A DNA stretch of 62,311 nucleotides, filler included. It is 4 parts of 4 records of this genome, joined end to end, with 100 filler letters (N's around TTAATTAATTAA, not from the genome) between each part and the next. Parts side by side here need not be neighbours in the genome. Positions count along the whole stretch, not along the records: positions 49,061 to 62,311 come from SRR31156797_3699; 3 more parts are not named here. The stretch is one strand, 5' to 3'. Made by a program: the position numbers and the translations under genes. The notes under the pieces were generated by a model. That model saw nothing but the letters and a program-made list of their open reading frames with translations, had not been told where the DNA came from and searched no databases. Positions 43,450 through 61,761 of this stretch are shown one piece after another (within the stretch, counting starts at the first letter, position 1; every line of letters begins with the position of its first letter).

Positions 43450-43477
43450 CACTACTGTGAAAAGTTTCACAGTAGTG
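43450..43477. promoter_or_regulatory. 28-bp palindrome with Rex/CRP-like core TGTGAA-N4-TTCACA
   Basis: CACTACTGTGAAA-AG-TTTCACAGTAGTG upstream of dctP. Confidence 0.55.
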
Positions 43478-43628
43478 TGGCAATCCGACAACATTGGAAA
43501 GGAGAGATGCCTAATCGTGAATGTAAACTATTTAAATAAATGTAAAAATACAAAATTGTTGCAGGTAGGAAACAGTTGCACCGACGCAACAGAGACCTGA
43601 TAATATTCTTGATCAAATTACTCAACAA

Positions 43629-43660
43629 AAAAAAGGAGGAGTCGAAACTCCTCCTTTTTT
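43629..43660 (-). terminator. Terminator after the amidohydrolase
   Basis: A-run GGAGGAGT CGAA ACTCCTCC T-run. Confidence 0.8.
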
Positions 43661-43683
43661 CATTGGAATAGAAAGCGTGTTAG

Positions 43684-44514
43684 TTAGAGTCCGAGAACCT
43701 TTTCCGCATTCTTATACATGATCTGCTCCATGATCTCTTCGGAAAGGCCAAAATCCTTGTACATGGCGATAGCATCACGGAAGTCCGCCCCGGGGTGAGC
43801 GCTGGCAAAAAGAAGCTTGTCACCGATTAAGTTGATTGCGGCTTTTACGTATGATTCTCCGCCGGGGTGTCGCTCATACTCGGATAACTCCATGTACACG
43901 TTCTCGTTGCGTTCCGTGACCATGATTGCCTCTTCAACCCAAGGATATCCGCCATGACTGATGATGATCTTCAATTGCGGGAAGTCACGAGCGACATAGT
44001 CGATGTAACGCGGAGCAGAGTGTTCCATAACGGCACCAGGAACCAATGTTCCCGGTCCTGTGGCAACAACAATGGGAATATCCAACTCGCAGCATTTGCT
44101 GTAAATTGGGTAGTACTTGGCGTCATTGACAAAAATCTTTGCCAGATACGGGTCGATGGCCGCACCGTGCATTCCTTCTTCAGTAATCTGGCGCGTCAAT
44201 TCATAAATGCCGTCCATTCCTTTGTGAGGGTCAACGCCCATGAAGCCAAGAAAGATTTCCGGGAAGTCTTTTACAAAAGAGATGACGCCTTCGTTGTTAG
44301 CAGCGGCATCGTAGGTCATGGAACAATCGCGACCAGTAATGACGGCCTTTACGACGTTTTGTTTTTTGATCATTTCGACAACTTCCGGGACTTCCTGTGC
44401 CACGAGATGAGTTAAGTCGATTTTGGCAAACATGCCTTTGAACATGGTGCTATTGGTGAAACCGTCAATGGTAGCCTGAGTGTTAGGACGAAAACGAAAA
44501 TCAATTATTTGCAC
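43684..44514 (-). CDS. Amidohydro_2-family protein with atypical metal ligands
   Basis: IIDFRFRP, YYPIYSKCCELDIPI, IIISHGGYPW, LLFASAHP and NAEKVLGL; GTG start at 44514 with AGGAGA RBS. Confidence 0.8.
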   Translation of the reverse strand: MQIIDFRFRPNTQATIDGFTNSTMFKGMFAKIDLTHLVAQEVPEVVEMIKKQNVVKAVITGRDCSMTYDAAANNEGVISFVKDFPEIFLGFMGVDPHKGMDGIYELTRQITEEGMHGAAIDPYLAKIFVNDAKYYPIYSKCCELDIPIVVATGPGTLVPGAVMEHSAPRYIDYVARDFPQLKIIISHGGYPWVEEAIMVTERNENVYMELSEYERHPGGESYVKAAINLIGDKLLFASAHPGADFRDAIAMYKDFGLSEEIMEQIMYKNAEKVLGL

Positions 44515-44561
44515 GGTGTATTCTCCTTGATAGTTGTGTGCATGAGATTGTTCCGTAAATA

Positions 44562-44576
44562 GCAAGCGCGATGCCA
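44562..44576 (-). promoter_or_regulatory. Sigma54 promoter for the amidohydrolase
   Basis: Minus strand TGGCAT-CGCGC-TTGC. Confidence 0.75.
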
Positions 44577-44913
44577 TCGCTTCTTCTCACGCCATCATGT
44601 TCAGCCACCCTTTTTACCCTTCTGTGACAATATTCACGCGCCGATTCACCTGCCCATTACATAAAAAAAAGGGGACAACTGTTTTTTTTTACCCAATTAA
44701 AATTTCTGAATTTATGTTGCCTCCCATTTTCTTTCCTATTCAGTTGCAGTTGATCACGCTGTGCAACGATGCAACGCAATAAATAACAGTCTGATATTTA
44801 TTGCTATTTAATGATTTTGTTGCATTTGAGCAACACAAGTGCTTTTTTTCCCAAGGGGGGCGGGGTGAGGAGTGGAATATGGATAAACTATTAAAATCAA
44901 CTGGTTATACGTT

Positions 44914-44928
44914 TGGCACTGTAGTTGC
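44914..44928 (+). promoter_or_regulatory. Sigma54 promoter for the glycyl radical enzyme operon
   Basis: TGGCAC-TGTAG-TTGC, exact -24/-12 consensus. Confidence 0.85.
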
Positions 44929-45022
44929 TCAAGGGGGATAGCGTTGTGAGCGCATGGATTTAACACAACATTGGCAAAAAAATATTGAGTTTAACACAAT
45001 CTCATTTACTAGGAGAACCATC

Positions 45023-47494
45023 ATGACCAACTTTGACTGCTGTCTTTCCCCACAGGAAGAACGTATCGCGAATAGCATCGACACCCGAGAGGGTCGCGAG
45101 CGCGTATACGAAATGCTTGACTCCTTCCACATGACCACTCCGTTCATTGATATCGAACGCGCCCGCTTCTTCACCGAATCCATGAAGAAGACTGAAGGTC
45201 AGCCGCTGGTTTTGCGTTGGGCCAAGGCACTGAAAAATTGTGCCGAGAAAATGTCTGTATACATCACCCCCAAGTCCCTCATCGCCGGCCGTTCCGGCAA
45301 GCTGGGTCGTTACGGCATCCTGTACCCGGAAATCGACGGTGATTTTTATTCCATCCTTAAGGATCTGGACAAGCGCGAAAAGAGCCCCTTCAAGATTACC
45401 CCTGAAGAAGTGGACATCGTTGTTACTGAAATCGCTCCTTACTGGGAAGGCAAGACCTACCATGAGCACCTGAACGGCGCCATGCCTGACGACCTGCGCG
45501 GTGTCACCTACGACGATGATCATGGCCTGAAGTCCAAGTTTGTCGTTTCCGAAACATCTTCCTATCGTTCCGCTCTCCAGTGGGTCCATGACTACGACAA
45601 GGTCCTGAAACGCGGCTTCAACGACATCAAGCGCGAAGCTCTTGAAAAAATGGCTGAACTGGATGCTGAAAGCCCTGTACAGACATGGGAAAAACGTCCT
45701 TTCTACGAAGCCATGGTCATCATCTGCGACGCTATTGTCCTCTGGGCACGTCGTCACGCAGACCTCGCTCGCGAGCAGGCAGAAGTCGAGACCGACAAAA
45801 TCCGTAAGGCCGAGCTGCTTGCAATGGCAGATCGTTGCGAACGTATGCCCGCCGAGCCCGCCAAGGACTTCCGCGACGCTATTCAGTCTCAGTGGTTCGT
45901 ACAGATGTTCTCCCGTATTGAGCAGAAGGCCTCCGCTATTATTTCCAATGGCCGTATGGACCAGTACTTGTTCCCCTTCTATGAGCAGGACATCAAGGCC
46001 GGCACTTTGACCTCTGAGCAGGCCAAGGAGCTTCTGGAAAACATGTGGGTTGAGATGGCTCAGTTCATCGACCTGTACATCAACCCCACAGGTAACGAAT
46101 TCAACGAAGGTTATGCTCACTGGGAAGCTGTCACCATCGGTGGTCAGACTCCTGAAGGCGACGACGCTACCAACGAACTGACCTACCTGTTCCTTGAGTC
46201 CAAGCGTGAGTTCCCGCTGAACTACCCTGACCTCGCAACCCGCATCCACTCCAACTCTCCTGAGCGTTTCCTCGCCGAGATTGCTGAGACCATCAAAGAT
46301 GGTTCCGGTTTCCCGAAACTTATCAACGACGAAGAAATCATTCCGCTGTACACCGCCAAGGGCGCACCTTTTGATCAGGCCATGGACTACTCCGTATCTG
46401 GTTGCACCGAAGCCCGTATGCCCAACTGCGAGACCTACACTTCCGGTTGTGTCTACATCAACTTCGCCACTGCCATGGAAATGACCATGCACAACGGTCG
46501 TATGCTTAAGTACGGCGATGAAGTTGTCGGTCTGGAAACAGGTGACGCCGGTGAGTTCAAGAGCTGGGACGAATTCTACGAAGCTTACCTGAAGCAGCAC
46601 AACAACTTGCTGGTTAAGGCCTTCCGTCAGCAGTACATTGTTGACAGCCTGCGTCCCGAACACTTTGCTTCTCCTCTTGCTTCCGTTCTGCATGACCTGT
46701 GCATGAAGGAAGGCATGGACTTGCAAAGCCAGACCATTCCGGGCGGCCTCGAGTACTCCTACTTCGAGTTCCTCGGTTACGGCACCGTGGTTGATTCCCT
46801 TTCCGCTATCAAGAAGCTGGTTTTCGAAGACAAGAAGCTGACCATGCAGGAAGTCGTGGACGCCCTGAAGGTGAACTTTGAAGGACACGAGGAAACTCGC
46901 GAGATCCTGCGTTCCGCTCCTTGCTACGGAAACAATGACTCCTACGCCGACGCAATTGCCAAGGAAATTGACAGCGTTTGCCAGGAATACGCTCACAAGT
47001 ACTCCGAAGAACGCGGCGTGAACCTCGACGTTCGCTACGTGCCCATTACCTCTCACGTACCTTTTGGTAAGGTTGTTTCCGCAACCCCGAATGGTCGTGA
47101 AGCTTGGACCGCTCTGTCCGATGGTGCTTCCGCATCCCATGGCGCAGACCAGAAAGGCCCGACCGCAGTTCTGATGTCCAACTACCACTCCAAAAACCGT
47201 GGTATGAAGAACCGTGCTTCCCGTCTGTTGAACGTCAAGCTTTCTCCGAAGGTTGTCGAAGGCGAAGCCGGTACCCAGAAGATCGTCGATCTGATTCGTA
47301 CTTGGTGCGACCTGCATCTCTGGCATCTCCAGTTCAACATCATCAACAAGAAAACCCTGCTCGAAGCTCAGGCCAATCCTGACAAGTACCGCAGCCTGCT
47401 CGTTCGTATCGCCGGTTATTCCGCATACTTCTGCGACCTTTCCCGCGACTTGCAGAACGACATCATCAACCGTACTGAACACGTACAGATGTAA
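45023..47494 (+). CDS. hpsG: Glycyl radical C-S lyase, HpsG type (DHPS sulfite-lyase)
   Basis: RIAGYSAYF glycyl loop and SGCTE cysteine loop; [31 protein letters not shown] and VPITSHVP match HpsG as I recall it rather than IslA; ATG 45023 with AGGAG RBS. Confidence 0.8.
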
Positions 47495-47510
47495 TTGATA
47501 CAGTGATATC

Positions 47511-47539
47511 GCGGGGGGCAGGTTCTACCTGTCCCCCGC
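47511..47539 (+). terminator. Intra-operon hairpin between lyase and activase
   Basis: GCGGGGGGCAGG-TTCTA-CCTGTCCCCCGC followed by ATTTT. Confidence 0.55.
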
Positions 47540-47624
47540 ATTTTATAAATCTTCGGGGCAGCCACTACACATTGCACGCTTTTTCCCGGCCTTAATGAAT
47601 TATCTACTCAAGAAGGAAATAGTC

Positions 47625-48548
47625 ATGAGTAACCCGAATGAAGGCATTGTCTTCAATATACAAAATTTTTCCGTGCATGATGGAGCAGGTATTCGAACCA
47701 TTGTGTTCATGAAAGGGTGTCCACTTCGTTGCGCTTGGTGTAGCAATCCTGAGTCTCAGTTCATGAAACCTCAAATGGGATATAATCCGGGTAAGTGTCT
47801 GACTACTGATAAATGTACACGCTGCATACGAATGTGCCCGGAGAACGCGATTTCTTCCACCGAAGACAAGCTGATATCCATTGACCCTAACAAATGTGTT
47901 CAGTGTCATACCTGTGCGGACAATTGTGCTTCCGACGCCCTCTGTGTCTACGGCAAGACAATGACTGTTCGCGAAGTCATAGATGAGGTGGAAAAAGAAG
48001 CGGCCTTTTATGCCCGGTCAGGCGGGGGCATGACCTTGAGCGGTGGAGAAGCATTGTCTCAGCCTCACTTTGCTTTGGCATTACTCAAGGAAGCTAAAAA
48101 ACGTCGTATTAAGACCGCTATGGAAACGTGTGGTTACGCGTCCTATGAAGACCTCAAATCTGTCTGTGAATTTCTTGATGAGTTGATTATTGATATTAAA
48201 GCTCACGACGACGAGAAACACAAAAAGGGTACTGGTGTCAGTAATCGACGTATTCTCGATAATATCAAGCGCTTGGTGGACGATTTTCCGAACCTGCCCA
48301 TCCTGATGCGTACGCCGATTATTCCAGAATTCAACGATACAGTTGAAGAAATTCAGAGTATTATTGACTTCATTCCGGTGCGCCCAAATATTACATACGA
48401 GTTGCTTCCCTATCATCGTATGGGACAACCCAAATACGCCTACCTCGGCATGGAATTCCCCTACGAAGGTATGGCTCTCGACACAGAGATTATGGGTAAA
48501 CTTCGCCCGATTGAAAAAGAGGCGAACGATAGATTTCGAAACGCATAA
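47625..48548 (+). CDS. hpsH: Glycyl-radical activating enzyme (radical SAM with 2x[4Fe-4S] insert)
   Basis: HDGAGIRTIVFMKGCPLRCAWCSNPES, ferredoxin-like Cys clusters, GGMTLSGGE and LLPYH. Confidence 0.85.
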   Translation: MSNPNEGIVFNIQNFSVHDGAGIRTIVFMKGCPLRCAWCSNPESQFMKPQMGYNPGKCLTTDKCTRCIRMCPENAISSTEDKLISIDPNKCVQCHTCADNCASDALCVYGKTMTVREVIDEVEKEAAFYARSGGGMTLSGGEALSQPHFALALLKEAKKRRIKTAMETCGYASYEDLKSVCEFLDELIIDIKAHDDEKHKKGTGVSNRRILDNIKRLVDDFPNLPILMRTPIIPEFNDTVEEIQSIIDFIPVRPNITYELLPYHRMGQPKYAYLGMEFPYEGMALDTEIMGKLRPIEKEANDRFRNA

Positions 48549-48589
48549 CAGGACCCTGTTGCAGGGTCCATGCCTCCTCCCCTGAATAA

Positions 48590-48625
48590 GACGCGCCCCC
48601 GATCTCTTGAGATCGGGGGCGCGTC
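48590..48625. terminator. Bidirectional hairpin
   Basis: GACGCGCCCCCGATCTC-TT-GAGATCGGGGGCGCGTC between convergent genes. Confidence 0.75.
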
Positions 48626-48653
48626 GCATTTATAAATGAATGGGCTGAAATTT

Positions 48654-48959
48654 TTATTGGGCTTTGTATTTTTTCAATTTACGAAATACAGTGGTACGAT
48701 CAAGGCTCAACTCCTTGGCAAGCTTAGCCATGTTCCCCACACGTTCCATACCATTCAGGATGATGGTTTTTTCCACTTCTTCAAGAATTTTCTTCATGGA
48801 TTTTCCGGTAATCTCCATACCACCCAACCCCTCTCCAGTAGAGACTCGTATCTCAGCCGTCGGAGTAAACGGCAGGTCAGCGACTTCGACAACATTTTTC
48901 TTGGATGTAACAACACAACCAAGGATAAGATTCTCCAACTCCCGGACATTACCTGGCCA
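48654..48959 (-). CDS. Sigma54-dependent enhancer-binding protein (C-terminal part only)
   Basis: WPGNVRELEN and Fis-type HTH AKELSLDRTTVFRKL. Confidence 0.9.
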   Translation of the reverse strand, partial: WPGNVRELENLILGCVVTSKKNVVEVADLPFTPTAEIRVSTGEGLGGMEITGKSMKKILEEVEKTIILNGMERVGNMAKLAKELSLDRTTVFRKLKKYKAQ

Positions 48960-48960
48960 T

Positions 48961-49060
48961 NNNNNNNNNNNNNNNNNNNNNNNNNNNNNNNNNNNNNNNN
49001 NNNNTTAATTAATTAANNNNNNNNNNNNNNNNNNNNNNNNNNNNNNNNNNNNNNNNNNNN
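48961..49060. other. Artificial contig linker
   Basis: Same N/TTAATTAATTAA spacer. Confidence 0.99.
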
Positions 49061-49063
49061 ACT

Positions 49064-49090
49064 GTGGTCCAGTTTCTTAGACCCACTTCT
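49064..49090. mobile_element. Probable IS terminal repeat (IS3-like) at contig start
   Basis: GTGGTCCAGTTTCTTAGACCCACTTCT; 20/27 identical to 49801-49827; supplies the stop of the neighbouring ORF. Confidence 0.45.
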
Positions 49091-49712
49091 CTTCATCAGT
49101 CGCAACAAAAACATTTCCACGCCCAAGATCTTCTGGGATATCTACTAGTTTCGTAATTTTAAATGTGTCGTCCAAGTAAACACTATAAACAAACTCATCG
49201 GGAGAAATGACCTTTTCCCCTTCATGTGTGTTCAAAACTATTCTTGCCCGACTAGAAAGATAGTGCTCATCAAAAGGGTAATCTTCGAACAATCCAAACC
49301 CATGATAATCAACAGACTCTGATTCATAATAAGTAACTTCCTCAAACTTATTAATGGCATTTAAATCGAGATGATCGAACAACGCCAATCCAGCAAGCCT
49401 GTCATTTAGGTCAATATAGGCCGACTCATACTCAAATCTATTGCTGATCCATACAGAAACTTTGACCTTGAAATAACCATTTTCAACACCATCAACAGTG
49501 ACCCATATTGCATTTTCTTTTATATCACTCCTGAACCCAGCGTGAGCAATATTGTCTTTGCTATAAAATTCTTGACTGGTATATATATCGACTCCCACTG
49601 CAAACACCCCTACCAATACTGTCAAAAATAAAATTGAAAGCAGCAACATAAATTTTCGCATATATTTTCCTACTAAAAAAAATTTACTTCCGATTAATTT
49701 CTTAATTATCAA
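49077..49712 (-). CDS. Membrane-anchored hypothetical protein with YPFD motif, probably 3'-truncated
   Basis: N-terminal hydrophobic helix and DYPFDEH (DUF4436-like); stop lies inside the IS-end-like sequence. Confidence 0.5.
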   Translation of the reverse strand: MIIKKLIGSKFFLVGKYMRKFMLLLSILFLTVLVGVFAVGVDIYTSQEFYSKDNIAHAGFRSDIKENAIWVTVDGVENGYFKVKVSVWISNRFEYESAYIDLNDRLAGLALFDHLDLNAINKFEEVTYYESESVDYHGFGLFEDYPFDEHYLSSRARIVLNTHEGEKVISPDEFVYSVYLDDTFKITKLVDIPEDLGRGNVFVATDEEKWV

Positions 49713-50006
49713 CGGATTACTAATCGCTCAACAAAAGATGTGAATATTAAAAAATCAAAGGTCGCCTCGTTTTTTCAGACCACCGAGCGGCTAATTTCAG
49801 GTGGTCCAATTTTCTTGGGCCACCTCTTAATGACAAATGGTCATAAGCCCTTTACTTAAAAACTTCTCAAATCAATTCAAGCTATATTCCACACGAAACA
49901 CCTTAACTATATTTGCTTGCGCTTTTCTACTAGTCAAATGCGCCTTACAAACATACAATCCAATACGCACACGGTAAAATTTTAATTCAAAAAAACAGGG
50001 TTTAAT

Positions 50007-53000
50007 ATGCAACTTATCAACTTCAAACAGCTGCGCGATAACCTGACAGATGAGACTCTAGCTGAGTTGCTTCATGACTTAATCCGGGGGACCGTTTCTT
50101 TCGATCAATTCTCTCAATTCGAATTCCCAACTAGCAACCTTTCTGGCGCACATGGATTTGATGCAAAACTTCAGTTGCCAATTGACTTTAATCATCCATT
50201 CCTTCCAAACGGATATTCATGTTGGGAATTAGGGGTAACAACTGGGGTAACAACCAAAGCAAATAGCGATTATAACAAACGCAAACAACACCCAAACGCA
50301 AAAGAAACTTCTTTTGTTTTTGTTACTCCTCAGGAATTTAACAAACGTAAAGAATGGGAAGAGTCAAAAAGGGAAGAGCAAATCTGGCTAAAAGTAAAAG
50401 TACTCAATGGGCATTCCTTAGTCGACTGGTTACAAGAGCTCCCTGCTGTTCAAGCTAAATGGGCAGCAAAATGGAACCTAATAAATTCAGAGGATTCGGT
50501 CTTTTCTATAGAAAACTTCTGGAACAATTGGAACTTAGCCTGCGATGAAAGATTACCAATCAAACTCGTAAAGGCCCTTGGTCAATCCGAAAGACAAACT
50601 GACGAAGATCAGGCGACTCTTGTGGAGAAATGGCTCATATCCAATAACTCTTCCGTTCTTAGAATCGCTGCTGGATCAGTTGACGAATCTCGCCTTTACC
50701 TCGCCGCAGTACTCCTCGACATAAATCACAGCCTTCAAGCTTCTCTACTATCAAAAATAATATGCACAGAGGACAAAACCACTTTTTATAAGTTAGCAGA
50801 ACATGACAAACCGCTCATTATTGTCACCTCACTTCAAGATGCAGGCATCCGCAACCTAGCCCAAAAGAACAATCATCGCGTATGCTTAGTGCTACGCAGT
50901 TCCAACGCTTCAAGAGAAATCAACATAGAATTGCCACTAAGAATAAATCAACATCTTTTTTTTCAAGCTCTCGACAAAGAAGGATTTACCTCTGAAGAAA
51001 GGGCCGAATGGGAGAACAAGAGCGGTAGAAGCCTTTCAGCCCTACGAAATGCTCTCGGACAAGAGCCCCCCTTGTGGACATCCGATCTCCAACAACTCCC
51101 ACTGCTTTCAGCCCTACTTGTAGGAGGATGGGACTCCAATAAAGAAGAAGATCGACTTGCTTTAAAAGAACTCTCCACCGAAAAGAGCTACAACTCCTTC
51201 GAAGAAAAATTAATTCCTATACTAAACATCCCTCAATCCCCTCTTCAGTGCGAATCGCCATATTGGCGTTCAATTTCTCCATATGTAGCTTGGATTAAAG
51301 TTTCGGAATACTTATCCGAACCACTGCTCAACAGATTCAAACAGATTTGCATCAGCATACTAGGAGCTCAGGATGCAATATCAATGCTGTCTCCCGAAGA
51401 ACGTTCAATGGCAGATTTTAAGGGAGTCACCAATCCTTATTCAAAACTAATTCGGCGTTCCTTGGCCGAATCACTAATCTTACTTTCACAAACTCTTGAA
51501 CAGCCTATAAAAACAATTCCTAACCGGTATGGGCGAAGTTTCGTACCAAATCTTATCGAAGAAATCTTAAGTGCACATTCTTTTAATTGGAAATCCGTAT
51601 CGCAAAACTTACCTGAATTGATCGAAGCTGCACCCAATACTGTTCTTGATGCACTTGAAAGAGACATTGATAATCATTGGAATAAGATTTCTTACTTAGC
51701 AACGACTAACACAAATTCCTTTTTCACAGGCGGTTCACTTCATACTCATATACTATGGGCTTTAGAGCTTGTCGCATGGAACGATGAACACATGGCTAAA
51801 GCTTCAAGAATCTTACTAAAGCTTGAAGAATGCTGGAAAGATTTAGCTGACAATGCAGGGAATAGACCCGCTAACAGCTTTGCTGATATTTTCTCTTATT
51901 GGTTGCCCCAGACTAATTCCTCCCTTAAATTACGAATAAAAACACTTACCCAGCTATCAAGACAATTTCCAGATACCATTTGGCCAATCCTGTTAAAGCT
52001 CCTCCCAACTGGTTATGCAACAATGACACATGGTGCGCGCCCTAAATGGCGCTGGGAAGTTCTCGATACACTGCAAACCCAAAACGAAATCTATGAATTC
52101 TGCCATACAGTCTTTTACCTTGCCTTAGATTTAGCAAAGGAATCTGAAAAACCACGATTGGGGTTACTGAGAGCACTTTCTTCACACATTCCTGCCGAGT
52201 GGCGAAATGACCTGTATTCACTATTAGCTAAGTATAGTCCAAAATCAGCTAATCGTTTTCAAATTTGGAACGAACTAAGAGCAACAATTCATCATAACCG
52301 CTCATTCGCTGATGCGGAATGGGCTTTACCTGAAAACGAGATACTTGAGCTTCTTAAAATTTATAAAGACATCAGTCCCAAAAATATAATTAAACAAAAC
52401 TCATGGGTATTTGCTAATACACCGAAATTTTTCGAAGGAGATCTTGTTGGCAAACGCGGATATGAAAAACAACAAGCGTTAGGACAAAAACTTCAGCAAA
52501 AAGCACTTGCTGAAATTTATAACAAAAACCAAGAAGAAAGCTTAATTAACCTATTAAAAGCTTGTCCAGACTCATACAACGCAGGAGATGAAGATTCTTA
52601 TCCCGCCCCTTACACAACTGGCATACAAATTGGCATTTTTTTGACAACAAAAAAAGGGACTGATTGTTTATTTGAATTTATATCTAGAGCACTTGAAAAG
52701 CATATCACAAAGCCTGCATGTTCCAGTTTAATGTCATCACTCATCAAAGAAATGAGAGAAGACAGCCTTTTGTCTGGTTATAAAAAGGCAAAAAATTCCG
52801 GGAAGAATTTTTTCCTCCTGTACTTGTTGGCACTCCCCTTATCGAAAGACTTGCTATCAAAACTCAGCAAAGAATCTGCAGATATTCAAAATCAATATTG
52901 GGAATTATTCTCCGCCTACAGCGTTGAGCCTGATTTGACTCAAGAAGTAGTTAACAAACTAATTAATTCATCTCGACTTGTTGATGCAGCTTCAATTGCA

Positions 53001-53819
53001 TCCCGTAATTCTGAAAATCTGACCTTTACCGATATATTACATCTTTTAGAACAACTGGCTTCAAGTCCTGAGTTAAATACAAATCAAAAAATCCGACAAT
53101 ACGAAATTCAACAGTTATTCAAATTTGCTCGTGGAAAAAAAGATGTAGAACCACAATTGATGGCGAATTTAGAATGGTTGTATTTTCCATTTTTAAAAGA
53201 CGTCCCTGATGGAGTAACTGTATTATTTGATCAACTAACAAGAACACCCGAATTCTTTATCGAATTGTTATCATACGCCTACAAATCCAAAACAAAAAAA
53301 CAAAAATCAAAGATTCGCGAAGACGTCGCACTACAAGCATACAGGGTAATTGAAGCCCAAAAACGTGCTGGAGGGTGGTTGCTAACCACGTTCAAAAGCA
53401 AAAATATCGACTATAGCGAAGAACTGCTTAAATGGATCAACTCAGTAAGAAAAATTGCCCAAAAAGAAGGGTACGTCGAAGTTGCAGATTCTACAATCGG
53501 ACAACAATTAGCATGCTCAGGCAAAGACCCATCAGATGATGCTTGGCCGGAAATTCCAGTGCGCAAAATATTTGAAACCATTACTTCAGAAAAAATGGCC
53601 ACAGGCTTTTTAATCGGTTGGAGTAACAAGCAAGGTGCTTTTTGGGGAAACGCAGTTGATCATTACCGAAAACAAAAAAATGATATCAAAAAAAATTCAA
53701 AAAAAATCGTTGGATCTTATCCTAATACACTTAAATTATTGCAATCATTACTGGAACGAGTTGAACAAGACATAGAATGGGCTATTGAACGCGATAACCA
53801 CAATAGCGTGGTGTCGTAA
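50007..53819 (+). CDS. 1270-aa candidate defence protein: restriction-endonuclease-like N-terminus, degenerate NTPase-like region, long helical C-terminus
   Basis: GFDAKL..SCWELG..KANSDYNKR..FVFVTP..W..VKVLNG..LVDWL; no canonical Walker A; AT-rich cargo. Confidence 0.6.
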   Translation: MQLINFKQLRDNLTDETLAELLHDLIRGTVSFDQFSQFEFPTSNLSGAHGFDAKLQLPIDFNHPFLPNGYSCWELGVTTGVTTKANSDYNKRKQHPNAKETSFVFVTPQEFNKRKEWEESKREEQIWLKVKVLNGHSLVDWLQELPAVQAKWAAKWNLINSEDSVFSIENFWNNWNLACDERLPIKLVKALGQSERQTDEDQATLVEKWLISNNSSVLRIAAGSVDESRLYLAAVLLDINHSLQASLLSKIICTEDKTTFYKLAEHDKPLIIVTSLQDAGIRNLAQKNNHRVCLVLRSSNASREINIELPLRINQHLFFQALDKEGFTSEERAEWENKSGRSLSALRNALGQEPPLWTSDLQQLPLLSALLVGGWDSNKEEDRLALKELSTEKSYNSFEEKLIPILNIPQSPLQCESPYWRSISPYVAWIKVSEYLSEPLLNRFKQICISILGAQDAISMLSPEERSMADFKGVTNPYSKLIRRSLAESLILLSQTLEQPIKTIPNRYGRSFVPNLIEEILSAHSFNWKSVSQNLPELIEAAPNTVLDALERDIDNHWNKISYLATTNTNSFFTGGSLHTHILWALELVAWNDEHMAKASRILLKLEECWKDLADNAGNRPANSFADIFSYWLPQTNSSLKLRIKTLTQLSRQFPDTIWPILLKLLPTGYATMTHGARPKWRWEVLDTLQTQNEIYEFCHTVFYLALDLAKESEKPRLGLLRALSSHIPAEWRNDLYSLLAKYSPKSANRFQIWNELRATIHHNRSFADAEWALPENEILELLKIYKDISPKNIIKQNSWVFANTPKFFEGDLVGKRGYEKQQALGQKLQQKALAEIYNKNQEESLINLLKACPDSYNAGDEDSYPAPYTTGIQIGIFLTTKKGTDCLFEFISRALEKHITKPACSSLMSSLIKEMREDSLLSGYKKAKNSGKNFFLLYLLALPLSKDLLSKLSKESADIQNQYWELFSAYSVEPDLTQEVVNKLINSSRLVDAASIASRNSENLTFTDILHLLEQLASSPELNTNQKIRQYEIQQLFKFARGKKDVEPQLMANLEWLYFPFLKDVPDGVTVLFDQLTRTPEFFIELLSYAYKSKTKKQKSKIREDVALQAYRVIEAQKRAGGWLLTTFKSKNIDYSEELLKWINSVRKIAQKEGYVEVADSTIGQQLACSGKDPSDDAWPEIPVRKIFETITSEKMATGFLIGWSNKQGAFWGNAVDHYRKQKNDIKKNSKKIVGSYPNTLKLLQSLLERVEQDIEWAIERDNHNSVVS

Positions 53820-54877
53820 TGAGTTACTCTTACACTGTATGCATTTTGCCAAATATTCCCTCAGAAAAAGAACTGGAAAACATCATCAAAAACCTTCTCA
53901 CAGAAGGCGATGAGGAGGCGCTCAAAAAACAGTATTTGTGCTTAATCAGAACAATTTGTGTAGAATTCCTTGGCGACAAGATTGGTAGCCCCACTGAACT
54001 TATAAAACAAACCATAGATCATCCTGCATTGAACCAATTACCCAAAAAATTAGCAAGGACTATCTCATCTAACCTATCGTCATCGTTATTACTTCTTGAA
54101 GATCTTGAAGACGAATCCTTCGATATTTATACCTTAGACAGTCCAGGCTCTCTCTTGATGAACTTTTTTAAAACAATACTGTCCTCCATATCTTTGCTCA
54201 AAAATTCAGCAGGTACAAAAAAAATAACCACACGTACCGTCGAAGTGATTCAGCAACAAGCCCCAGAAACAAAAATAGAAATCCAAATAGATCGATTACC
54301 AAACTCAATTTATGCCTTATTAGAAACTGAAACAGATGAAGGTTTTTTCCAAGCAATCCAAGAAGGAATTCGTTTCTTTGCCCGAGAAGTAGTCATCGAC
54401 CAAAGTGCAAATGAAGGATTTTGGAGAGGTAATGCTTTTCCTGAAGATGAAAACACCTGTACCAGTAAGCTCATTGGATATTTGAAAATGTTTTTTGCCA
54501 ACCTTGGTATTAAAATCAAATCCGAATATTATATTGGTAATGACAGATGTGATTTGTGCTTCTCATTCAAAAATTGGCTGATTCCATTAGAAGCAAAAGT
54601 TCAAAACAACCGCGAGGTTTGGACTGGAATAAAACAACAACTAGTTGCTAAGTACATCATGCAAAATAAGACATGTGATTATGGATTATTCTTAGTATAC
54701 TGGTTCGGTGTTATAGGTAATGGACGGAATTTAGCATCTCCGCCACGAGACTCTACGCACAACTTACCAACATCAAATGAAATGCTCGAACAAGTACTGA
54801 CAGAATATTATATACCAGAAGAATACAAAAAAAATATCGAAGTGGTCTGCTTAAACTGTGCAGTAGCTGCCCAATAA
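53819..54877 (+). CDS. Protein with C-terminal PD-(D/E)xK-like nuclease domain
   Basis: DENTC..SEYY..DRCDL..IPLEAK..QLVAKY..YGLFLVYWFG; TAATG-coupled to the upstream gene. Confidence 0.65.
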   Translation: MSYSYTVCILPNIPSEKELENIIKNLLTEGDEEALKKQYLCLIRTICVEFLGDKIGSPTELIKQTIDHPALNQLPKKLARTISSNLSSSLLLLEDLEDESFDIYTLDSPGSLLMNFFKTILSSISLLKNSAGTKKITTRTVEVIQQQAPETKIEIQIDRLPNSIYALLETETDEGFFQAIQEGIRFFAREVVIDQSANEGFWRGNAFPEDENTCTSKLIGYLKMFFANLGIKIKSEYYIGNDRCDLCFSFKNWLIPLEAKVQNNREVWTGIKQQLVAKYIMQNKTCDYGLFLVYWFGVIGNGRNLASPPRDSTHNLPTSNEMLEQVLTEYYIPEEYKKNIEVVCLNCAVAAQ

Positions 54878-54897
54878 AAAAAGCAAAGGAATTAATT

Positions 54898-55179
54898 ATG
54901 GATTACATTAAAAACCGAATATCTGAAGTAATTGAATCATTTAACGTCCACAATGATTCTTCAATTGGTGCTAATGAGATTCTCGATCCTTTTGTTCGGG
55001 ACCATTCAAACTATGACTCCTTTGACAACCTGGCAAAGAGCGCTAATCTAAATGAAGACTATAAAGGAATTGATCCTGAAAAATTTGATAGCTTTATTTT
55101 CAATAATATTGACCATGTTAAAGTATCAGATCTACACAGCCTCATAACACAAGCGATGAACAAATATCATGATATCTAA
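54898..55179 (+). CDS. Small acidic hypothetical protein
   Basis: AAGGA RBS, 20 bp after the preceding stop. Confidence 0.6.
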   Translation: MDYIKNRISEVIESFNVHNDSSIGANEILDPFVRDHSNYDSFDNLAKSANLNEDYKGIDPEKFDSFIFNNIDHVKVSDLHSLITQAMNKYHDI

Positions 55180-55290
55180 AGAGTATAGAGACACCACAAA
55201 AAACATTCAAAACGATTACCGAAGCAGAAATGTTAATCTCTAAGCATATGGTACATTTATTTACATATTTACTTTTTACTCTCTAGTTTA

Positions 55291-56004
55291 ATGATCATCA
55301 TTGTCGGAGACATCCACGCCGCTTGGGGGCGATTCAATCAGCTGATTCTGGAACAACAGCCGGACATAATTCTGCAATGCGGTGATTTTGGCTTTTGGCC
55401 AGGACACCGCTTTTATGATCCGGCGACTAAGTTGCAGCCAGGCTCCACACTCGTTCATTGGATCGACGGCAACCACGACGACCACTACGCCATTCAGGCA
55501 AGGCTAAAAGCCAACCAGCTATTTTTATCTGATGAGCTGCCTGATGTAGTGTTTCAACCACGAGGCTCTATTGTGACACTGCCCGATGGCAGGATTGTAC
55601 TATTTGCGGGGGGAGCATTTTCTGTAGACAACCGTATCCGGTTGCCTGGAAAAGATTGGTTCCCCGATCTAGAAATACTGACCGAAGAAGATTTGAAGCG
55701 GTTCCCTGATCCAGACTCCACCGAAATTGATATCGTAATTAGTCACACCGCACCCAACGAATTTTCAGCCAAAGGCCTTCCGCTTGAGCAGTGGCCGGAC
55801 TGGTGGGATCAAGATAAGGACCCATCGGCCGACATTCTCAGCAAAGTTCTTCAAGCCTACAAGCCATCTCAATGGTTCTTCGGTCACTTTCATCTCTATC
55901 AGGAAGGCTCCTATAATGGCTGCGATTGGTACGCCTTGGATCATGCCCAAGGCGACACGCGTTGGTGGATGGAACTTCCTAAACAAAAAATTAAGACATT
56001 ATGA
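55291..56004 (+). CDS. Calcineurin-like metallophosphoesterase
   Basis: GDIH, GDFG, GNHD, SHT and GHFH motifs. Confidence 0.9.
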   Translation: MIIIVGDIHAAWGRFNQLILEQQPDIILQCGDFGFWPGHRFYDPATKLQPGSTLVHWIDGNHDDHYAIQARLKANQLFLSDELPDVVFQPRGSIVTLPDGRIVLFAGGAFSVDNRIRLPGKDWFPDLEILTEEDLKRFPDPDSTEIDIVISHTAPNEFSAKGLPLEQWPDWWDQDKDPSADILSKVLQAYKPSQWFFGHFHLYQEGSYNGCDWYALDHAQGDTRWWMELPKQKIKTL

Positions 56005-56582
56005 AGAATATTAGACAGTACAATGATGGGTATGCGGACTTCGACAAAGGAGGTTGCAGTATCGTTGAGTTAGTTGACAACGTTACCCCCGGATTAATTG
56101 GCAATTATTCTGTAGGGGATGCTGAATTTGATAATTGGCTCCAAACCGAAAAATTCACATACTCATTTATGTACCCAAGATGTGCTTTGTTACAGGAGGA
56201 TCTGAATATTTTATTAACCTGTTGCAAAGAGCTCTTTTTGAAGCATGAAAGGCAAAGACAATTTTGCATAATCCGAAAGGCCAAGTTCACCAACCTAGCG
56301 ACGAAGCTCTTTCTCAAACTACAAGACCTTCAGGTCGCTGCCGAGTCAAATAAATTACAAATTTCAAGCAAAGCCATCGAAGAAACCATCTCCACAACAG
56401 GGGTGCCTATTTATACGTTTCAAAACGCATTTATATCCATCTGTATCAACTTTCCTTCCCTTAAATTTATGAAAATAGATTATGGTCAAAGGGTTAGATC
56501 CTTTCTTTCAAGCGTAACACCTGTAGAGCATAGGATGCAGCGAAGAGTTCTCCAAAATTTCCTCCGAAAAAGAACAGTATAA
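56001..56582 (+). CDS. Hypothetical protein
   Basis: ATGA overlap with the phosphoesterase; no recognised motif. Confidence 0.55.
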   Translation: MKNIRQYNDGYADFDKGGCSIVELVDNVTPGLIGNYSVGDAEFDNWLQTEKFTYSFMYPRCALLQEDLNILLTCCKELFLKHERQRQFCIIRKAKFTNLATKLFLKLQDLQVAAESNKLQISSKAIEETISTTGVPIYTFQNAFISICINFPSLKFMKIDYGQRVRSFLSSVTPVEHRMQRRVLQNFLRKRTV

Positions 56583-56767
56583 AAATCTATATGCTACTGT
56601 CCGTGGAAGAGAGAACTGCAACTGGATAGATATGTTCTAAATGCCTGCCGCAAAAAGCCACGCAGACTCATTGGCGTAAATTATTCATAAAAATGAGATA
56701 GATACCCCCCCCCTCAATCTGTCCTAGCACCTTACTTACACATCGATTTTGTTTGAACTCTCCACGA

Positions 56768-57118
56768 TTATATATCGAGGGCTTCTCTCAACCCCAAAAC
56801 GTTTGTGGCTAAAGTATCAAATTGCTCTTGTAATTCTTCCAATGTGTCGACGATTTGGTCGGTCGAAAGCGGATGGTTCGCATTCATCTTATATGCGATC
56901 TGATTTAGATTCGAACCTACGCCATGAAACTCCTTTCTCCATGAATTAAACTCATCCACCATTTCACGGGTGAGCTGCGGTTGATCGCTTTTAAAATAGA
57001 GTTCTATAGCCTCCCTAATCAGGGCTGACCTGTCGCGAATCTTAAGTTCATTTTTTCTTTTGTCGAGATTTGCAACCATCTCTTGAGACATGCGAATAGG
57101 TATCATCTTATTCTTCAT
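56768..57118 (-). CDS. mobC: MobC-like ribbon-helix-helix relaxosome accessory protein
   Basis: MIPIRMS..RSALIREAI (RHH) and GVGSNLNQIAYKMN; ATG 57118 with AGGAG RBS. Confidence 0.8.
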   Translation of the reverse strand: MKNKMIPIRMSQEMVANLDKRKNELKIRDRSALIREAIELYFKSDQPQLTREMVDEFNSWRKEFHGVGSNLNQIAYKMNANHPLSTDQIVDTLEELQEQFDTLATNVLGLREALDI

Positions 57119-57174
57119 TTCTTCTCCTGGTCGGGACCCTTTAGGGAAGGCTCTTGCGGGTGAACTGGCCTCAG

Positions 57175-57270
57175 CCAGTGAGGGGGGCACCCCCTCCCTT
57201 ATCAGCTGATAAGGCAGGATTGGCGTAGCCAATAGCACGATGTAATACAAAGTGCGTATCCTGCCCTTAG
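57175..57270. other. oriT candidate with IncP/MOB_P-type nic site
   Basis: TATCCTG|CCC at 57257-57266, inverted partner AAGGCAGGAT near 57211, hairpins TTGGCGTAGCCAA and GAGGGGGGCACCCCCTC; upstream of mobC. Confidence 0.65.
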
Positions 57271-57400
57271 TAAAAAGTGTCTACAAACTTTTTACGTTAC
57301 CTTTCCTACGAGGACCTCTTGCAGCATAATAATACAACATCTACTTGATATTGTTAAATTTAAAGCAAATTAGTCTCTAAAAATTGACATTTCCTTAAAA

Positions 57401-57520
57401 TGCGTCCCTACCTATTTTGTGATGCGTCCCCCCTCTTTTTACCGTGCGTCCCTACCCGAAACCTTATGCGTCCATGGGGTAATTGGTATGCGTCCAATAG
57501 GGAAAAGGCATGCGTCCCTA
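57401..57520 (+). repeat. Six iteron-like repeats with exact 22-bp period
   Basis: TGCGTCC at 57401, 57423, 57445, 57467, 57489 and 57511, preceded by an AT-rich stretch. Confidence 0.85.
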
Positions 57521-57792
57521 TAAAAACGATTCCCTAGAGGCAAACACCGCTTTACCGATCTTGCGCCCGTCATGATTCTGGGAAAACGGCTTGCAAGGCC
57601 GCGCCAGGAGTTCGTGCGCTGCGCTTCCTCTACTCCTGTCACTTTGCCCTTGCCGCCCCCAGGATCATGCCAAGCGAAGATCGGGCGGCTGTGCCAAACA
57701 AACCCCGACAGGGTGAGGGGGCCAAAAGCTTGTGAGCCCCCCACCCCCTGCCGGGGGATCGTGGTGGGGAAAGAAAAAGGAGCAATAAAAAA

Positions 57793-57942
57793 ATGACTCA
57801 AATTGAAATTAATGCCCTCATTAAAAGAAGAGACGCATTTCTGAAAAGGATAGCAAAAAAGGCTAAGCCATCAGCCCGAGATCGAAGAGAATTTTGCAAA
57901 CTACGAGAAGAGGTTCAGAAGGTTATCCAACAACAGTGCTAG
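57793..57942 (+). CDS. 49-aa basic small ORF (not in the ORF track)
   Basis: AAAGGAG RBS; MTQIEINALIKRRDAFLKRIAKKAKPSARDRREFCKLREEVQKVIQQQC*. Confidence 0.45.
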   Translation: MTQIEINALIKRRDAFLKRIAKKAKPSARDRREFCKLREEVQKVIQQQC

Positions 57943-58078
57943 TTCACTAAACTCGTGTTCAATCAAGGGGGGGGGCCAGGGGGCTTGCCCCAAGCTCTCG
58001 ACCGGAGGGAGGACAGAACCGCCCTCCGGTTCGAGGTTTTGAACCTCAAAGTACAAAATGCAGCTTCTATAGGAGCTA

Positions 58079-59137
58079 TCATTTTGCATTTCGATCCCTT
58101 TTTAACCTTTCAAGGGCATTCATTCCTCCTTCACCCATTTTATCAGCTCCCCATTTCGCTCCCTTCCATGCTGCACCACCTGCAGCTCCACCGGCCATTT
58201 TACTGCCAACAAACAAACCACCGGCCAGAGCCGACGTGCCAGCAGAAAGAGCTCCGGCAATTCCAGATGTTGAACCAGCTATGGTGCCCGTCATATGAGC
58301 GGCAAAGTCAGGAGATTTTAAGATCATGGCGAGGCAGAATGCACACCAAATCAAGATTTTGAGGTAGGAATCAGAGACAATAATGGAGACAGTTTCTGAT
58401 TGCATTGTAAATGCTAAGACGGCTTCACTAATGCCTTTCCCACAAATGCCCATGACAATAGCGGCCAAAGCAGCAAGAAGCATATAGTTCAAAAGGCCTC
58501 GGCACCATGTGATAAAAATGTGCCGTGTCTCTTTAAAGGCAACAAAGAGGAAGCAGGGCCCACCCATAATAAAAAATATAAACATTGAAAAAAAGGCGAT
58601 TCCAAATATCACAAAAAACGAAGCATACATGGCCATGAAAATGGTAAACAAAGGAATCATGGCTAGAATAAAACAAAAATATCGCCATGCGTTAGTGAGG
58701 AAATTTCCCTTAGGGGACAAGTCTTCAATCGCACGGAAAAAATCTATCACAGTTTGATCAAGACTCCTGAATACCTCATGAACATTACCAAATCCTTCAC
58801 TACCTCCAGATGTTGGCGCAGAGGAAATAAAAAATGAGGACGCATCCAGGGTCAAATTGACCGCCGTTTCAATCACGAAATCATAATACCAAGTCCATTC
58901 AAAAATTACCGCGTAAAGGCTGGATGCGATTATACAAGAGATAAGCAGGTCATAAACCGACATCTTACTTTCTGCCTTGTAAAATTTATACCCTGTACAA
59001 ACGATATAGAGGGTGACAAAGGCCCGAAAAAACATTCCGAAGGACTCCATCAATTCACCATAAATCGCTGATACGTATTGAGTGTTCATCAAAATTAAAT
59101 TTGAAAATATATTGGCTGAAACCCCATAATCTTCCAT
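58079..59137 (-). CDS. VirB6/TrbL-family type IV secretion membrane protein
   Basis: Multi-TM, MGGPCFLFVAFKETRHIFITW, Gly/Ala-rich tail; follows the VirB5-like gene. Confidence 0.8.
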   Translation of the reverse strand: MEDYGVSANIFSNLILMNTQYVSAIYGELMESFGMFFRAFVTLYIVCTGYKFYKAESKMSVYDLLISCIIASSLYAVIFEWTWYYDFVIETAVNLTLDASSFFISSAPTSGGSEGFGNVHEVFRSLDQTVIDFFRAIEDLSPKGNFLTNAWRYFCFILAMIPLFTIFMAMYASFFVIFGIAFFSMFIFFIMGGPCFLFVAFKETRHIFITWCRGLLNYMLLAALAAIVMGICGKGISEAVLAFTMQSETVSIIVSDSYLKILIWCAFCLAMILKSPDFAAHMTGTIAGSTSGIAGALSAGTSALAGGLFVGSKMAGGAAGGAAWKGAKWGADKMGEGGMNALERLKRDRNAK

Positions 59138-59158
59138 GTTCTTTCCTTTTCGTTGAAA

Positions 59159-59992
59159 TTATTTCGCAATTGCTTTTTTCATAAGAGACTTGATGTCCGT
59201 GATGTCCGAGACTCCCGCTTCACGAAAGTTCGACAACTCGTAATCAAGCACGTCCTTACGTTCCACGACCGTTTTGATAGCCGTAGCTCTTGCCTCAATG
59301 GATTCATCTGTAACGCCGGAATAATGGGATAAAGCCATGGCCTGCTCAAAACGCATAGACATGGATAATTGTTCTTGAAGAACAATCAAAATTTCAAGAA
59401 GGATACTGTTGGTGAGAGCTTGCGATTCTTTAGTGTCTTTGCCTTTGCCAATCCTGGCTCCAAGCGTATTTATTTTGTCAATACGCCCTGACATGGAGGC
59501 TAATAAGCTTTCGCTATCCTCGATGGCTTTTTTGAAAGCTTGTTGACGAACCTGATATTCCTTTTCTGCTCGTCTGCGATCTTCTGCAGAAGTGGACGTG
59601 CGTGGATCTCCAAAGACATTTTCAAGCAAATCTTTAACCGTCTCAATATCACCTTGATCCGGGTCGGATAGATCCTCATAGAGATCTTTGTAATGCCCAT
59701 ACTGACGCATGACGGTGTTATATGAGTCATTGAGGAAGGCCTTGGTTTGCAATACGTCGTCGTAAACACCCGTCACACGATCATAGGTTCCAGTAATCGC
59801 CTCGTATGACTTGGTTAGGGTTTCATTGGCCTTTATTGCCTCATCAAGTTGAGACTGCATGCTTTCGAGTTGTTTGGTGAGATTTTTAACCTCTTCGGCC
59901 ATGTAAATATAAGAAGTCGGATCTGAAACAGTGAACGCCGAAGCCGTGCCAGAAAGCATTACTATGATTATCATTAGAACTATCCTAATCAT
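59159..59992 (-). CDS. VirB5/TrbJ-like secreted protein
   Basis: Signal peptide then TVSDPTS, coiled coil QLESMQSQL..YEAITG, and KDTKESQAL. Confidence 0.75.
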   Translation of the reverse strand: MIRIVLMIIIVMLSGTASAFTVSDPTSYIYMAEEVKNLTKQLESMQSQLDEAIKANETLTKSYEAITGTYDRVTGVYDDVLQTKAFLNDSYNTVMRQYGHYKDLYEDLSDPDQGDIETVKDLLENVFGDPRTSTSAEDRRRAEKEYQVRQQAFKKAIEDSESLLASMSGRIDKINTLGARIGKGKDTKESQALTNSILLEILIVLQEQLSMSMRFEQAMALSHYSGVTDESIEARATAIKTVVERKDVLDYELSNFREAGVSDITDIKSLMKKAIAK

Positions 59993-60105
59993 CTTGCCCT
60001 TCCTTTGAATGGTGTTGGGAATAAGACCAAGGGGTGCCAGTCTATTTCGGCCGCTCTATGGTCTTGTTTTGATCCCAAATTTATTTTTGCCAATAAAAAA
60101 GGGCA

Positions 60106-61575
60106 CTAAGTTTCATGGCTTTCCTCTGGTGGCCCAACTACGAGCGGCCTCCAAAATCCTTCCGAACCTTTACGTCCCCATTCGATTCCTTCGATTTCTT
60201 TACCTGACTTCTTCCAATATGCTCGTTTTTCGTTAACCCACTTGACTTGTTTTGTTTTTGGATTCCATTGGCGGCCATAAGTCCGTTTGACTACAACCAA
60301 CTCTTCCTTTTCAATTTCTGGTTCTGGATCTTCAACATACTCAACGCCTAATCTTTCCGCATACTTATTCCATGCCTTCAAAAGGCCATATGACCTAAGG
60401 TCTCGCTGAGATCGAATCCAACTCCACCGATGCACGATTTGTTCAACTGTATATAGACCATACCCATTCTTTCCAGCTCTCAGCACGGCCAACTGACTTG
60501 ATTGATTAAAAAACAATGGTGCCAATTCAACATCTTTCCCAAACCCTCTAAGGTCATAGCTAAGTCTATGATTAAGCCGAGGAATAGTACTCTTATTGTT
60601 AAGCGGGATATATCCAGCTTTAAATTGTACTTTCCCTCTCTGGGTCACAGGGAAAACCATTTTTAAAATAGCTTCTAACCAAATCAGGGCTTTAGATGTG
60701 TCGATTAAATCTTCAACGTCACAGTGAAAAAAATGAGTTTCTCCCTTCAAACGTCGACCGGCGAATGGCAAAACCCCCATATGAACATGAAAACGATCAC
60801 GCATGAGGTCAGAATCCCCTACGGGATGGATATTGGCGTAAAAAAAGAGTCCATCTTTTGCCCGAAGTCCAAAAAGCTTACGTACCCATTTACCCAGCTC
60901 ATTCATGAACTTCTTGCGGGTATTCGACCCTTTTGGAATCATGTTCTCAACCTCTCTGGGAAGAGTCACAACTAAAGTCCAAAAACGACCTATATTTTGA
61001 ACTTTACTCAGAGAGAGTATTTTGTTGCCCCATCTTGTAGCGGTCCTTCTCTTGTCGGCATCACAGCACTTTGTACAAGATGATTCGCTACAACTAAGAC
61101 CGGCTATCCTCTGTGTTTTGTCCGCGTATGTGATCAGCTTGCCTGTTGACCATTTAGCTCCACAAAATTCGTAATTCTTTTTACGAAAAGGTTTATATTC
61201 AGAGTTCTCAATGTTCTCGACTTCTCGGTTGATTGATCGAAAACAATCCAGCCAGCGAGAAATGTTTTGAGGAGACAGGCTAGTAAAATCTCGGTCACGG
61301 AAGCCCTGTTCTCGCAACATGGCATAAAGCCAGTTGCGCAAAGCCCAGGGTCTTTCTCGCAAATCAGGCTCGACGGGGCAGCCGCGAATATGCTGGACAG
61401 GCAAAAAAGCAGAGGGGTCTCGACATGAGTGGAGTATCTGTCCCGCATTGTTCGGGGATAAAGGTTTAAGAGAATTCCAATAGGAAAAGAGAACTTCACC
61501 ACAAAAATCTTCATGGATGTCAGCTAGGCCATTTGCGATTGCAACATGCCGCCGCTCTGTGGTCGAAAGGTACAA
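60106..61575 (-). CDS. HUH-superfamily replication initiator (rolling-circle type, divergent)
   Basis: CSESSCTKC, motif I-like LVVTLP, motif II RFHVHMG, candidate catalytic Tyr in RLSYDLR, LRSYG; TTG start with GGAGG RBS. Confidence 0.7.
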   Translation of the reverse strand: MYLSTTERRHVAIANGLADIHEDFCGEVLFSYWNSLKPLSPNNAGQILHSCRDPSAFLPVQHIRGCPVEPDLRERPWALRNWLYAMLREQGFRDRDFTSLSPQNISRWLDCFRSINREVENIENSEYKPFRKKNYEFCGAKWSTGKLITYADKTQRIAGLSCSESSCTKCCDADKRRTATRWGNKILSLSKVQNIGRFWTLVVTLPREVENMIPKGSNTRKKFMNELGKWVRKLFGLRAKDGLFFYANIHPVGDSDLMRDRFHVHMGVLPFAGRRLKGETHFFHCDVEDLIDTSKALIWLEAILKMVFPVTQRGKVQFKAGYIPLNNKSTIPRLNHRLSYDLRGFGKDVELAPLFFNQSSQLAVLRAGKNGYGLYTVEQIVHRWSWIRSQRDLRSYGLLKAWNKYAERLGVEYVEDPEPEIEKEELVVVKRTYGRQWNPKTKQVKWVNEKRAYWKKSGKEIEGIEWGRKGSEGFWRPLVVGPPEESHET

Positions 61576-61680
61576 AAGAACCTCCGAATCGCTATGGTTG
61601 AAAAATAACCACTCGATGCGAGAAGCGGGTGTGACAAATCACACCTTGTATTTTCCGTGTATTTAGGGGAAAATTAGAAA

Positions 61681-61757
61681 CGCTTCCGCTTTCGAGCGGA
61701 CAAGTGACCAGAAGAGAGCTGCGCTATCTGCCAGGATGCGGGCAGCTCTCTTCTTTT
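61681..61757 (+). ncRNA. Candidate counter-transcribed RNA in the alpA-rep spacer
   Basis: TTGTAT-N17-GAAAAT upstream; hairpin TCCGCT-TTCG-AGCGGA; terminator stem AGAAGAGAGCTGC / GCAGCTCTCTTCT followed by T residues. Confidence 0.45.
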
Positions 61758-61761
61758 ACCT

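Follow-up and report, generated by a model that had tools for sequence, protein, structure and literature searches.

Do a large receptor-like protein and a small nuclease, encoded one directly after the other on a mobile element, make up an undescribed anti-phage system in which an inactive scaffold senses the phage and sets off a separate nuclease, as the original prediction proposed, or does the large protein belong to a known class of receptors with a nuclease of their own? The question is raised by a locus within a window of 62,311 nucleotides (the whole stretch of DNA that was analysed, four parts of one genome joined with filler), in the part that comes from record SRR31156797_3699. This part carries three open reading frames (ORFs), called here gene 1, gene 2 and gene 3:

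49061-62311, strand not assigned: mobile element of 13.25 kilobases (kb), carrying genes 1-3 and ending in a piece of tRNA-Thr(CGT)
50007-53819, + strand: gene 1, 1270 amino acids (aa), Avs8-related receptor with a degenerate STAND domain
53819-54877, + strand: gene 2, stand-alone protein of 352 aa, its start codon overlapping the gene 1 stop codon
54898-55179, + strand: gene 3, acidic ORF of 93 aa with no relative found

By comparison of sequence profiles, gene 1 is a distant full-length homologue of Avs8A (PD-lambda-4A). One gene-1 subclade keeps gene 2 as a conserved accessory, and most gene-1 relatives have no gene 2. The sequence features on which the proposal had been built were all found: three co-oriented ORFs of low guanine-plus-cytosine (GC) content (39.3%, 36.5% and 33.0% for genes 1, 2 and 3, compared with 47.6% in 43001-48960 and 44.8% in the backbone of the element), a TAATG junction with a one-base overlap between genes 1 and 2, the motifs WELGV (W73-V77) and LRIAAGSVDES (residues 218-228) in gene 1, and the motifs DEN, D, EAK, QL, KY and YGLFLVYWFG in gene 2. 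Our statements on published systems draw on three reports (Nagy et al., 10.1101/2025.07.02.662641; Lee et al., PMC13581612; PMC3710099).

Gene 1 and its relation to Avs8A

Three regions could be distinguished in gene 1:

50007-50477, + strand: residues 1-157, Mrr-like PD-(D/E)xK nuclease fold
50535-51059, + strand: residues 177-351, P-loop/AAA+-STAND fold
51060-53816, + strand: residues 352-1270, helical region, of which 531-1270 are homologous to the Avs8A sensor

The relation to Avs8A emerged from a profile-profile comparison, in which the gene-1 family and Avs8A-like proteins aligned over 1115 columns (probability 99.75, E 2e-27) with 13% identity between the profiles, a remote similarity. 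In this alignment the GxxGxGKT of the Avs8A-like proteins falls over AAGSVDES of gene 1, and their FQ-x-K over WELG. When gene 1 was compared piecewise, residues 1-160 matched the Avs8A-like profile with probability 79.5 (E 1.5e-5), residues 531-700 with E 8e-14, residues 701-1000 weakly (E 3e-4), and residues 531-1270 together with probability 98.6 (E 1e-15, 654 columns). Erebus-like and Dsr1-like profiles, used as controls, did not match gene 1 (probability about 1%). A Dsr1-type sensor was also considered for gene 1; comparison by sequence showed no similarity to Dsr1-like pieces.

Other searches placed gene 1 in a family of its own. It matched no Pfam or NCBIfam model at E 0.1, a sequence search of solved structures gave nothing below E 0.4, and in the protein atlas gene 1 fell only in unnamed clusters (the gene 2 N-terminus reached 0.80 at best). 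A search with gene 1 returned 36 relatives of 23-44% identity, some with an N-terminal helix-turn-helix (HTH), and the family was present in 10 of the 301 genomes sampled from the order and in 24 plasmid records. As the family is widespread and no model of PADLOC, Pfam or NCBIfam matches the window protein, defence genes of this type are likely under-counted.

The structural models agree with the domain layout. The AlphaFold2 model of residues 1-700 was confident (predicted local distance difference test, pLDDT, 87.6), and Foldseek placed Avs3, SAMD9 and Avs5 on top (E 3e-7 to 5e-5, low template-modelling scores). In a wide structural search, residues 8-157 resembled Mrr-like PD-(D/E)xK nucleases (1y88, Z 9.3, root-mean-square deviation (rmsd) 2.5, 108 residues aligned), and residues 177-351 resembled AAA+ folds with Z about 8. 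The predicted STAND-type fold lacking a Walker A motif was thus borne out by Foldseek, the fold search and the family alignment. In this alignment of 57 rows, the Walker A pattern is found in none of the 54 gene-1 family rows and in all three Avs8A-like outgroups.

The nuclease motif of gene 1 differs from the canonical one in a way that the family shares. D52 is kept in 50 of 51 family rows, E74 in all 51 and K84 in 49; G or S stands at position 76 in 48 rows (this count leaves out the three outgroups and L008, L009 and L010, which have other N-termini, and keeps P0192, which also has another N-terminus). A dead nuclease is not expected to keep D52, E74 and K84, so K84 presumably stands in for the usual lysine. 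Because the E-x-G and the loss of Walker A are family traits and these three residues are conserved, the nuclease of gene 1 is probably active. The proposal of a dead gene 1 nuclease that needs a separate effector was therefore not upheld, E-x-G/S with K84 being the family norm.

Gene 1 shares with Avs8 its length, the order of Mrr-like nuclease, STAND domain and helical sensor, homologous nuclease and sensor regions and the presence of a second gene downstream. It differs in having no Walker A, in having E-x-G with K84 where EcAvs8 has the Q-x-K active site Q78/K80 (PMC13581612), in having no direct PADLOC match, and in that its downstream gene encodes a predicted nuclease. As it fails the canonical motif and PADLOC tests, we regard gene 1 as an Avs8-related variant and not as a canonical Avs8 member. 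Absence of PADLOC matches, expected for a novel system, did hold for genes 1 and 2, but gene 1 is still an Avs8A homologue by profiles. The claim of an undescribed system could not be kept for the receptor, which is homologous end to end to Avs8A and has a published counterpart in an Avs8 with a degenerate ATPase (PMC13581612); what is new is the conserved second nuclease. We found no description of the gene 1-gene 2 pair in the literature, though the large supplements of PMC13581612 may list it.

Some relatives of gene 1 carry other N-termini. In L008 (682-4194), L009 (1528-5007) and P0192 the gene-1 sensor, from about residue 350, is fused directly to another N-terminal domain, some 275 aa long, which looks Cap4-like by its motif. 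These three proteins have no STAND nucleotide-binding domain, a situation that parallels the relation between Avs7 and Dsr1. In L010 (1006-4851), STAND and sensor regions of the gene-1 family follow an N-terminal Avs4-type nuclease (NF041815, E 3e-43). Such different N-termini on the same sensor (L008, L009, L010) are what a receptor whose effectors can be exchanged should show.

Gene 2, a predicted second nuclease

Gene 2 is predicted to be a second DNase, with an Avs10-type nuclease domain preceded by a HEPN-like bundle:

53849-54214, + strand: residues 11-132, helical bundle resembling HEPN, with no Rx4-6H motif
54329-54874, + strand: residues 171-352, Erebus/Avs10-type PD-(D/E)xK nuclease

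Residues 199-346 match positions 1173-1316 of the EruA model NF058535 (E 9e-29; 100 bits against a cut-off of 1000), and gene 2 is 34% identical to an EruA-like protein over 153 aa. The expectation that this domain usually forms the C-terminal end of a large defence protein with a NACHT domain proved right, the protein being EruA. D245, E258 and K260 are intact in gene 2, and together with E211 they are invariant in nine of nine stand-alone gene-2 sequences. Mutation of the nuclease in EhAvs10 (E1263A-K1265A) abolished toxicity (PMC13581612). Gene 2 shares with Erebus/EruA (Avs10) the C-terminal nuclease with intact D and E-x-K; in EruA, however, NACHT, sensor and nuclease lie in one chain of ~1320 aa, whereas gene 2 has no NACHT or sensor and has an N-terminal bundle of its own, and gene 1 does not resemble Erebus. 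Gene 2 was matched by none of the PADLOC models, including PD-Lambda-4, and a word-based homologue search gave no match. An exhaustive search found 976 relatives at E 0.001; among the 150 listed, 82 have at least 1150 residues, seven (P0037-P0043) share the N-terminal domain, and none fits the gene-1 profile as a fusion of gene 1 to the gene-2 domain.

The model of gene 2 had a pLDDT of 73.7, and Foldseek with this model gave nothing below E 0.001. In the wide search, residues 171-352 showed a BamHI/OkrAI-like nuclease fold (Z 8.8), and residues 11-132 were nearest to the HEPN domain of sacsin (3o10; Z 8.3, rmsd 3.1, 104 residues aligned), a value in the range of generic bundles, followed by several weaker HEPN structures. 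This combination resembles the fusions of HEPN and restriction endonuclease domains, which arose repeatedly (PMC3710099); it differs from them in that the fold match is middling, the N-terminus matches no Pfam HEPN model, and Rx4-6H is neither present in gene 2 nor conserved among the aligned sequences.

Gene order and possible modes of action

The reading that we favour, with somewhat more belief than doubt, is that gene 1 acts by itself as an Avs8-type receptor-nuclease responding to a capsid protein and that gene 2 is an accessory DNase. In this scheme a phage protein, most probably the major capsid protein, would dock on the helical sensor of gene 1. Oligomers would then form through the STAND-fold domains, with no ATP turned over, and the N-terminal Mrr-like nucleases brought together in this way would destroy DNA, killing the infected cell. 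Gene 2 would add killing power, either recruited to the activated receptor or released from it, but defence can probably do without it. We hold it to be conceivable but doubtful that gene 2 is activated by gene 1. Avs8A, with an Mrr nuclease and a STAND domain, binds capsid protein and degrades double-stranded DNA with Mg and ATP (Nagy et al., 10.1101/2025.07.02.662641). KpAvs8, which we infer to be the likeliest tested relative of the gene-1 family, has degenerate Walker motifs yet kills upon capsid expression (Lee et al., PMC13581612, Extended Data Fig. 11 legend): in 13 of the 23 capsid rows of the source data, survival was 0 to 0.0004 with the capsid genes of ZL19, Pal001, T1 and Pal008, and 0.87-1.5 with those of lambda, T5, HK97 and P22. 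No partner nuclease is mentioned for KpAvs8 in the available part of that report, in which it differs from the pair described here.

Several points weigh against this reading. Purified Avs8A required ATP (10.1101/2025.07.02.662641), and gene 1, having no Walker A, may be unable to bind it; its E74-L-G76 lacks the canonical E-x-K lysine. The likeness to KpAvs8, an Avs8-type protein with degenerate Walker A and B, is a comparison by published description only (PMC13581612). The assignment to Avs8 was made with a comparison set that did not hold Avs11-24, and with an Avs8A-like profile of seven rows, just two of them full-strength matches to PD-Lambda-4_A. Gene 1 itself gave no PADLOC PD-Lambda-4 match and only a chance-level PADLOC row (L175, the positive control for PD-Lambda-4, scored 1080 bits), and only five of 35 alignment members matched PD-Lambda-4_A, weakly (best E 4.7e-7). 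Residues 161-350, 351-530 and 1001-1270, taken alone, had no significant Avs8A-like match. Finally, the link between genes 1 and 2 comes from two lineages only.

Most of the family does without gene 2. In the order sample, the 10 genomes that carry the gene-1 family all lacked a gene-2 match, which argues against the need for a separate effector, and the sole match in the sample was a 1406-aa fusion in a genome that has no gene-1 family. Likewise, no gene-2-like ORF followed gene 1 in 14 loci outside the subclade, two of which had less than 300 base pairs (bp) of flank. Among genome loci with the gene-2 domain (the best 80 of 315 related), two had a full-length stand-alone gene 2, L014 and L051, and in both, the only other stand-alone copies with readable context, TAATG joins a gene-1 homologue to gene 2. 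The prediction that the two genes co-occur elsewhere was right, in one subclade. Further copies were sought widely. Related stretches were 127 of 168 in metagenomes, the best 80 of which held no full-length stand-alone gene 2, and two of 24 in viral sequences, with the C-terminal domain only; none of 11 plasmid records covered 80% of gene 2. Two of 81 genomes among the relatives of G400 matched, both already known, and two of 201 in its family, one known and one a 1406-aa fusion, with no new stand-alone copy in either set. An alignment of the subclade found none of 595 metagenome stretches and none of 43 viral stretches, and its four matches in 401 genomes of the phylum (256-379 bits) were at the level of ordinary family members.

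The explanation that survives best next to the favoured one, although we consider it unlikely, is an obligate two-part system, in which the receptor passes its signal in trans to gene 2, the main killing nuclease, either by docking gene 2 on the receptor oligomer or by freeing it like a toxin from its antitoxin. It would account for the conserved junction in L014 and L051 and for the like divergence of the two genes, the window pair being 30% identical to L014/L051 in gene 1 and 27-28% in gene 2. L014 and L051, 90% identical to each other in gene 1 and 73% in gene 2, count on these grounds as one lineage. It also fits with the tree of the sensor region, where the window protein, P0001, P0187, L014 and L051 form one clade (FastTree support, Shimodaira-Hasegawa-like, 99). 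In all five members the C-terminal motif of the family (e.g. G1217, E1220, A1224, Y1252) is lost, and 46 clade-specific invariant residues appear, denser in 1-300 and 1214-1256, with new ones in the C-terminal motif region and at 24-51 and 225-297. The invariance of the gene 2 catalytic residues points the same way. However, D52, E74 and K84 are kept in five of five clade members, so that the clade's own nuclease shows no decay, the independent lineages found are two, and shared descent alone can yield clade-specific residues. When residues 1-352 and 985-1270 of gene 1 were modelled in complex with gene 2, without alignments or controls, the score was 0.00 in both runs, which speaks neither for nor against a contact. 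A further reading, to which we give equally little credence, is an ATPase-dead Avs8-type subclade whose tail was remodelled to dock an Avs10/Erebus-derived nuclease, combining NLR-like, inflammasome-like recruitment in trans with a nuclease of its own.

Rather unlikely, too, is that gene 2 works as a defence nuclease in its own right, or is a passenger that can be dispensed with: co-travelling cargo that has no physical link to gene 1. Avs8B, the second gene of Avs8, is dispensable (10.1101/2025.07.02.662641), defence genes cluster on mobile elements, as around L014, where the pair lies between mobilisation and restriction-modification genes on a mobilisable element, and the N-terminal domain of gene 2, confined to stand-alone copies, could be its own switch. 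Yet adjacency and TAATG have been kept over about 70% divergence, while all other neighbours differ. The weakest explanation, which we judge improbable, is that gene 1 belongs to another Avs sensor cluster (Avs11-24 or an unnamed one) and senses a non-capsid trigger: its similarity to Avs8A is remote, and D47 of HjAvs13 and D53 of ApAvs15, where single changes (D47A, D53A) are inactivating (PMC13581612), are positioned like D52 and may mean a similar nuclease variant, but gene 1 aligns colinearly with Avs8A-like proteins from end to end and is as long as they are, and a degenerate-Walker member has been described within Avs8 (PMC13581612). The favoured reading and these alternatives are not mutually exclusive. 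A receptor that has no Walker A tests the need for nucleotide binding in STAND activation, and if gene 2 were activated in trans, effector modules would be seen to pass from one Avs family to another not just within fusion proteins but also as free partners.

The carrying element and neighbouring genes

Gene 3 (17 D+E against 8 K+R) had been proposed as a member of the system. With this query it was not found in 201 genomes, G400, G401 or 206 loci, and it is missing beside the pair in L014 (the L051 stretch ends 318 bp past gene 2); we conclude that it is a passenger and not a conserved part of the pair. The co-oriented run of three genes stands as proposed, except that it does not end there:

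55291-56004, co-oriented with genes 1-3: metallophosphoesterase gene (Pfam PF00149, 49% GC)
56001-56582, co-oriented, overlapping the metallophosphoesterase gene: gene of 193 aa, no family
60106-61575, - strand: 489-aa protein with a faint IS91 transposase match (E 0.06)

The first two (55291-56582) are further cargo and had no relative among the loci examined for it. The third is possibly, judging from its faint match, the rolling-circle replication protein of the element. Also encoded in 49061-62311 are MobC, VirB6/TrbL, VirB5-like and HTH genes; no integrase was recognised among the ORFs scanned, and a promoter and terminator scan stayed at chance level.

That the genes are island cargo was confirmed by these mobility genes and by comparison with the nearest genome (G001), which matches 43001-48960 at 98% and 49061-62311 in two pieces only, of 28 bp and 30 bp, the latter part of a tRNA-Thr(CGT) gene; the only connection of the element with chromosomal DNA upstream runs across N gaps (48961-49060). 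The matches lie at the element ends (62282-62311 and 49064-49091) and are ~4.8 kb apart in G001, one of them inside tRNA-Thr(CGT), which suggests a variable integration site. Positions 49061-58000 are identical to part of a 13,251-bp contig of run X1, possibly the source of this DNA and therefore no independent occurrence. In L014, a short tRNA-like remnant (7915-7945, opposite strand) seems by eye to follow gene 2. Elsewhere, three tandem Dsr1-like copies, some of them broken, lie within 13 kb in G465:C1:20503-32957 (L185, L187, L189, L191-L194). Upstream in the window, 44954-48548 encodes an 846-aa protein in which RIAGY is a C-terminal motif and, after it, a CxxxCxxC protein, a pair present also in G001 and, judging from these motifs, presumably a glycyl-radical enzyme with its activase.

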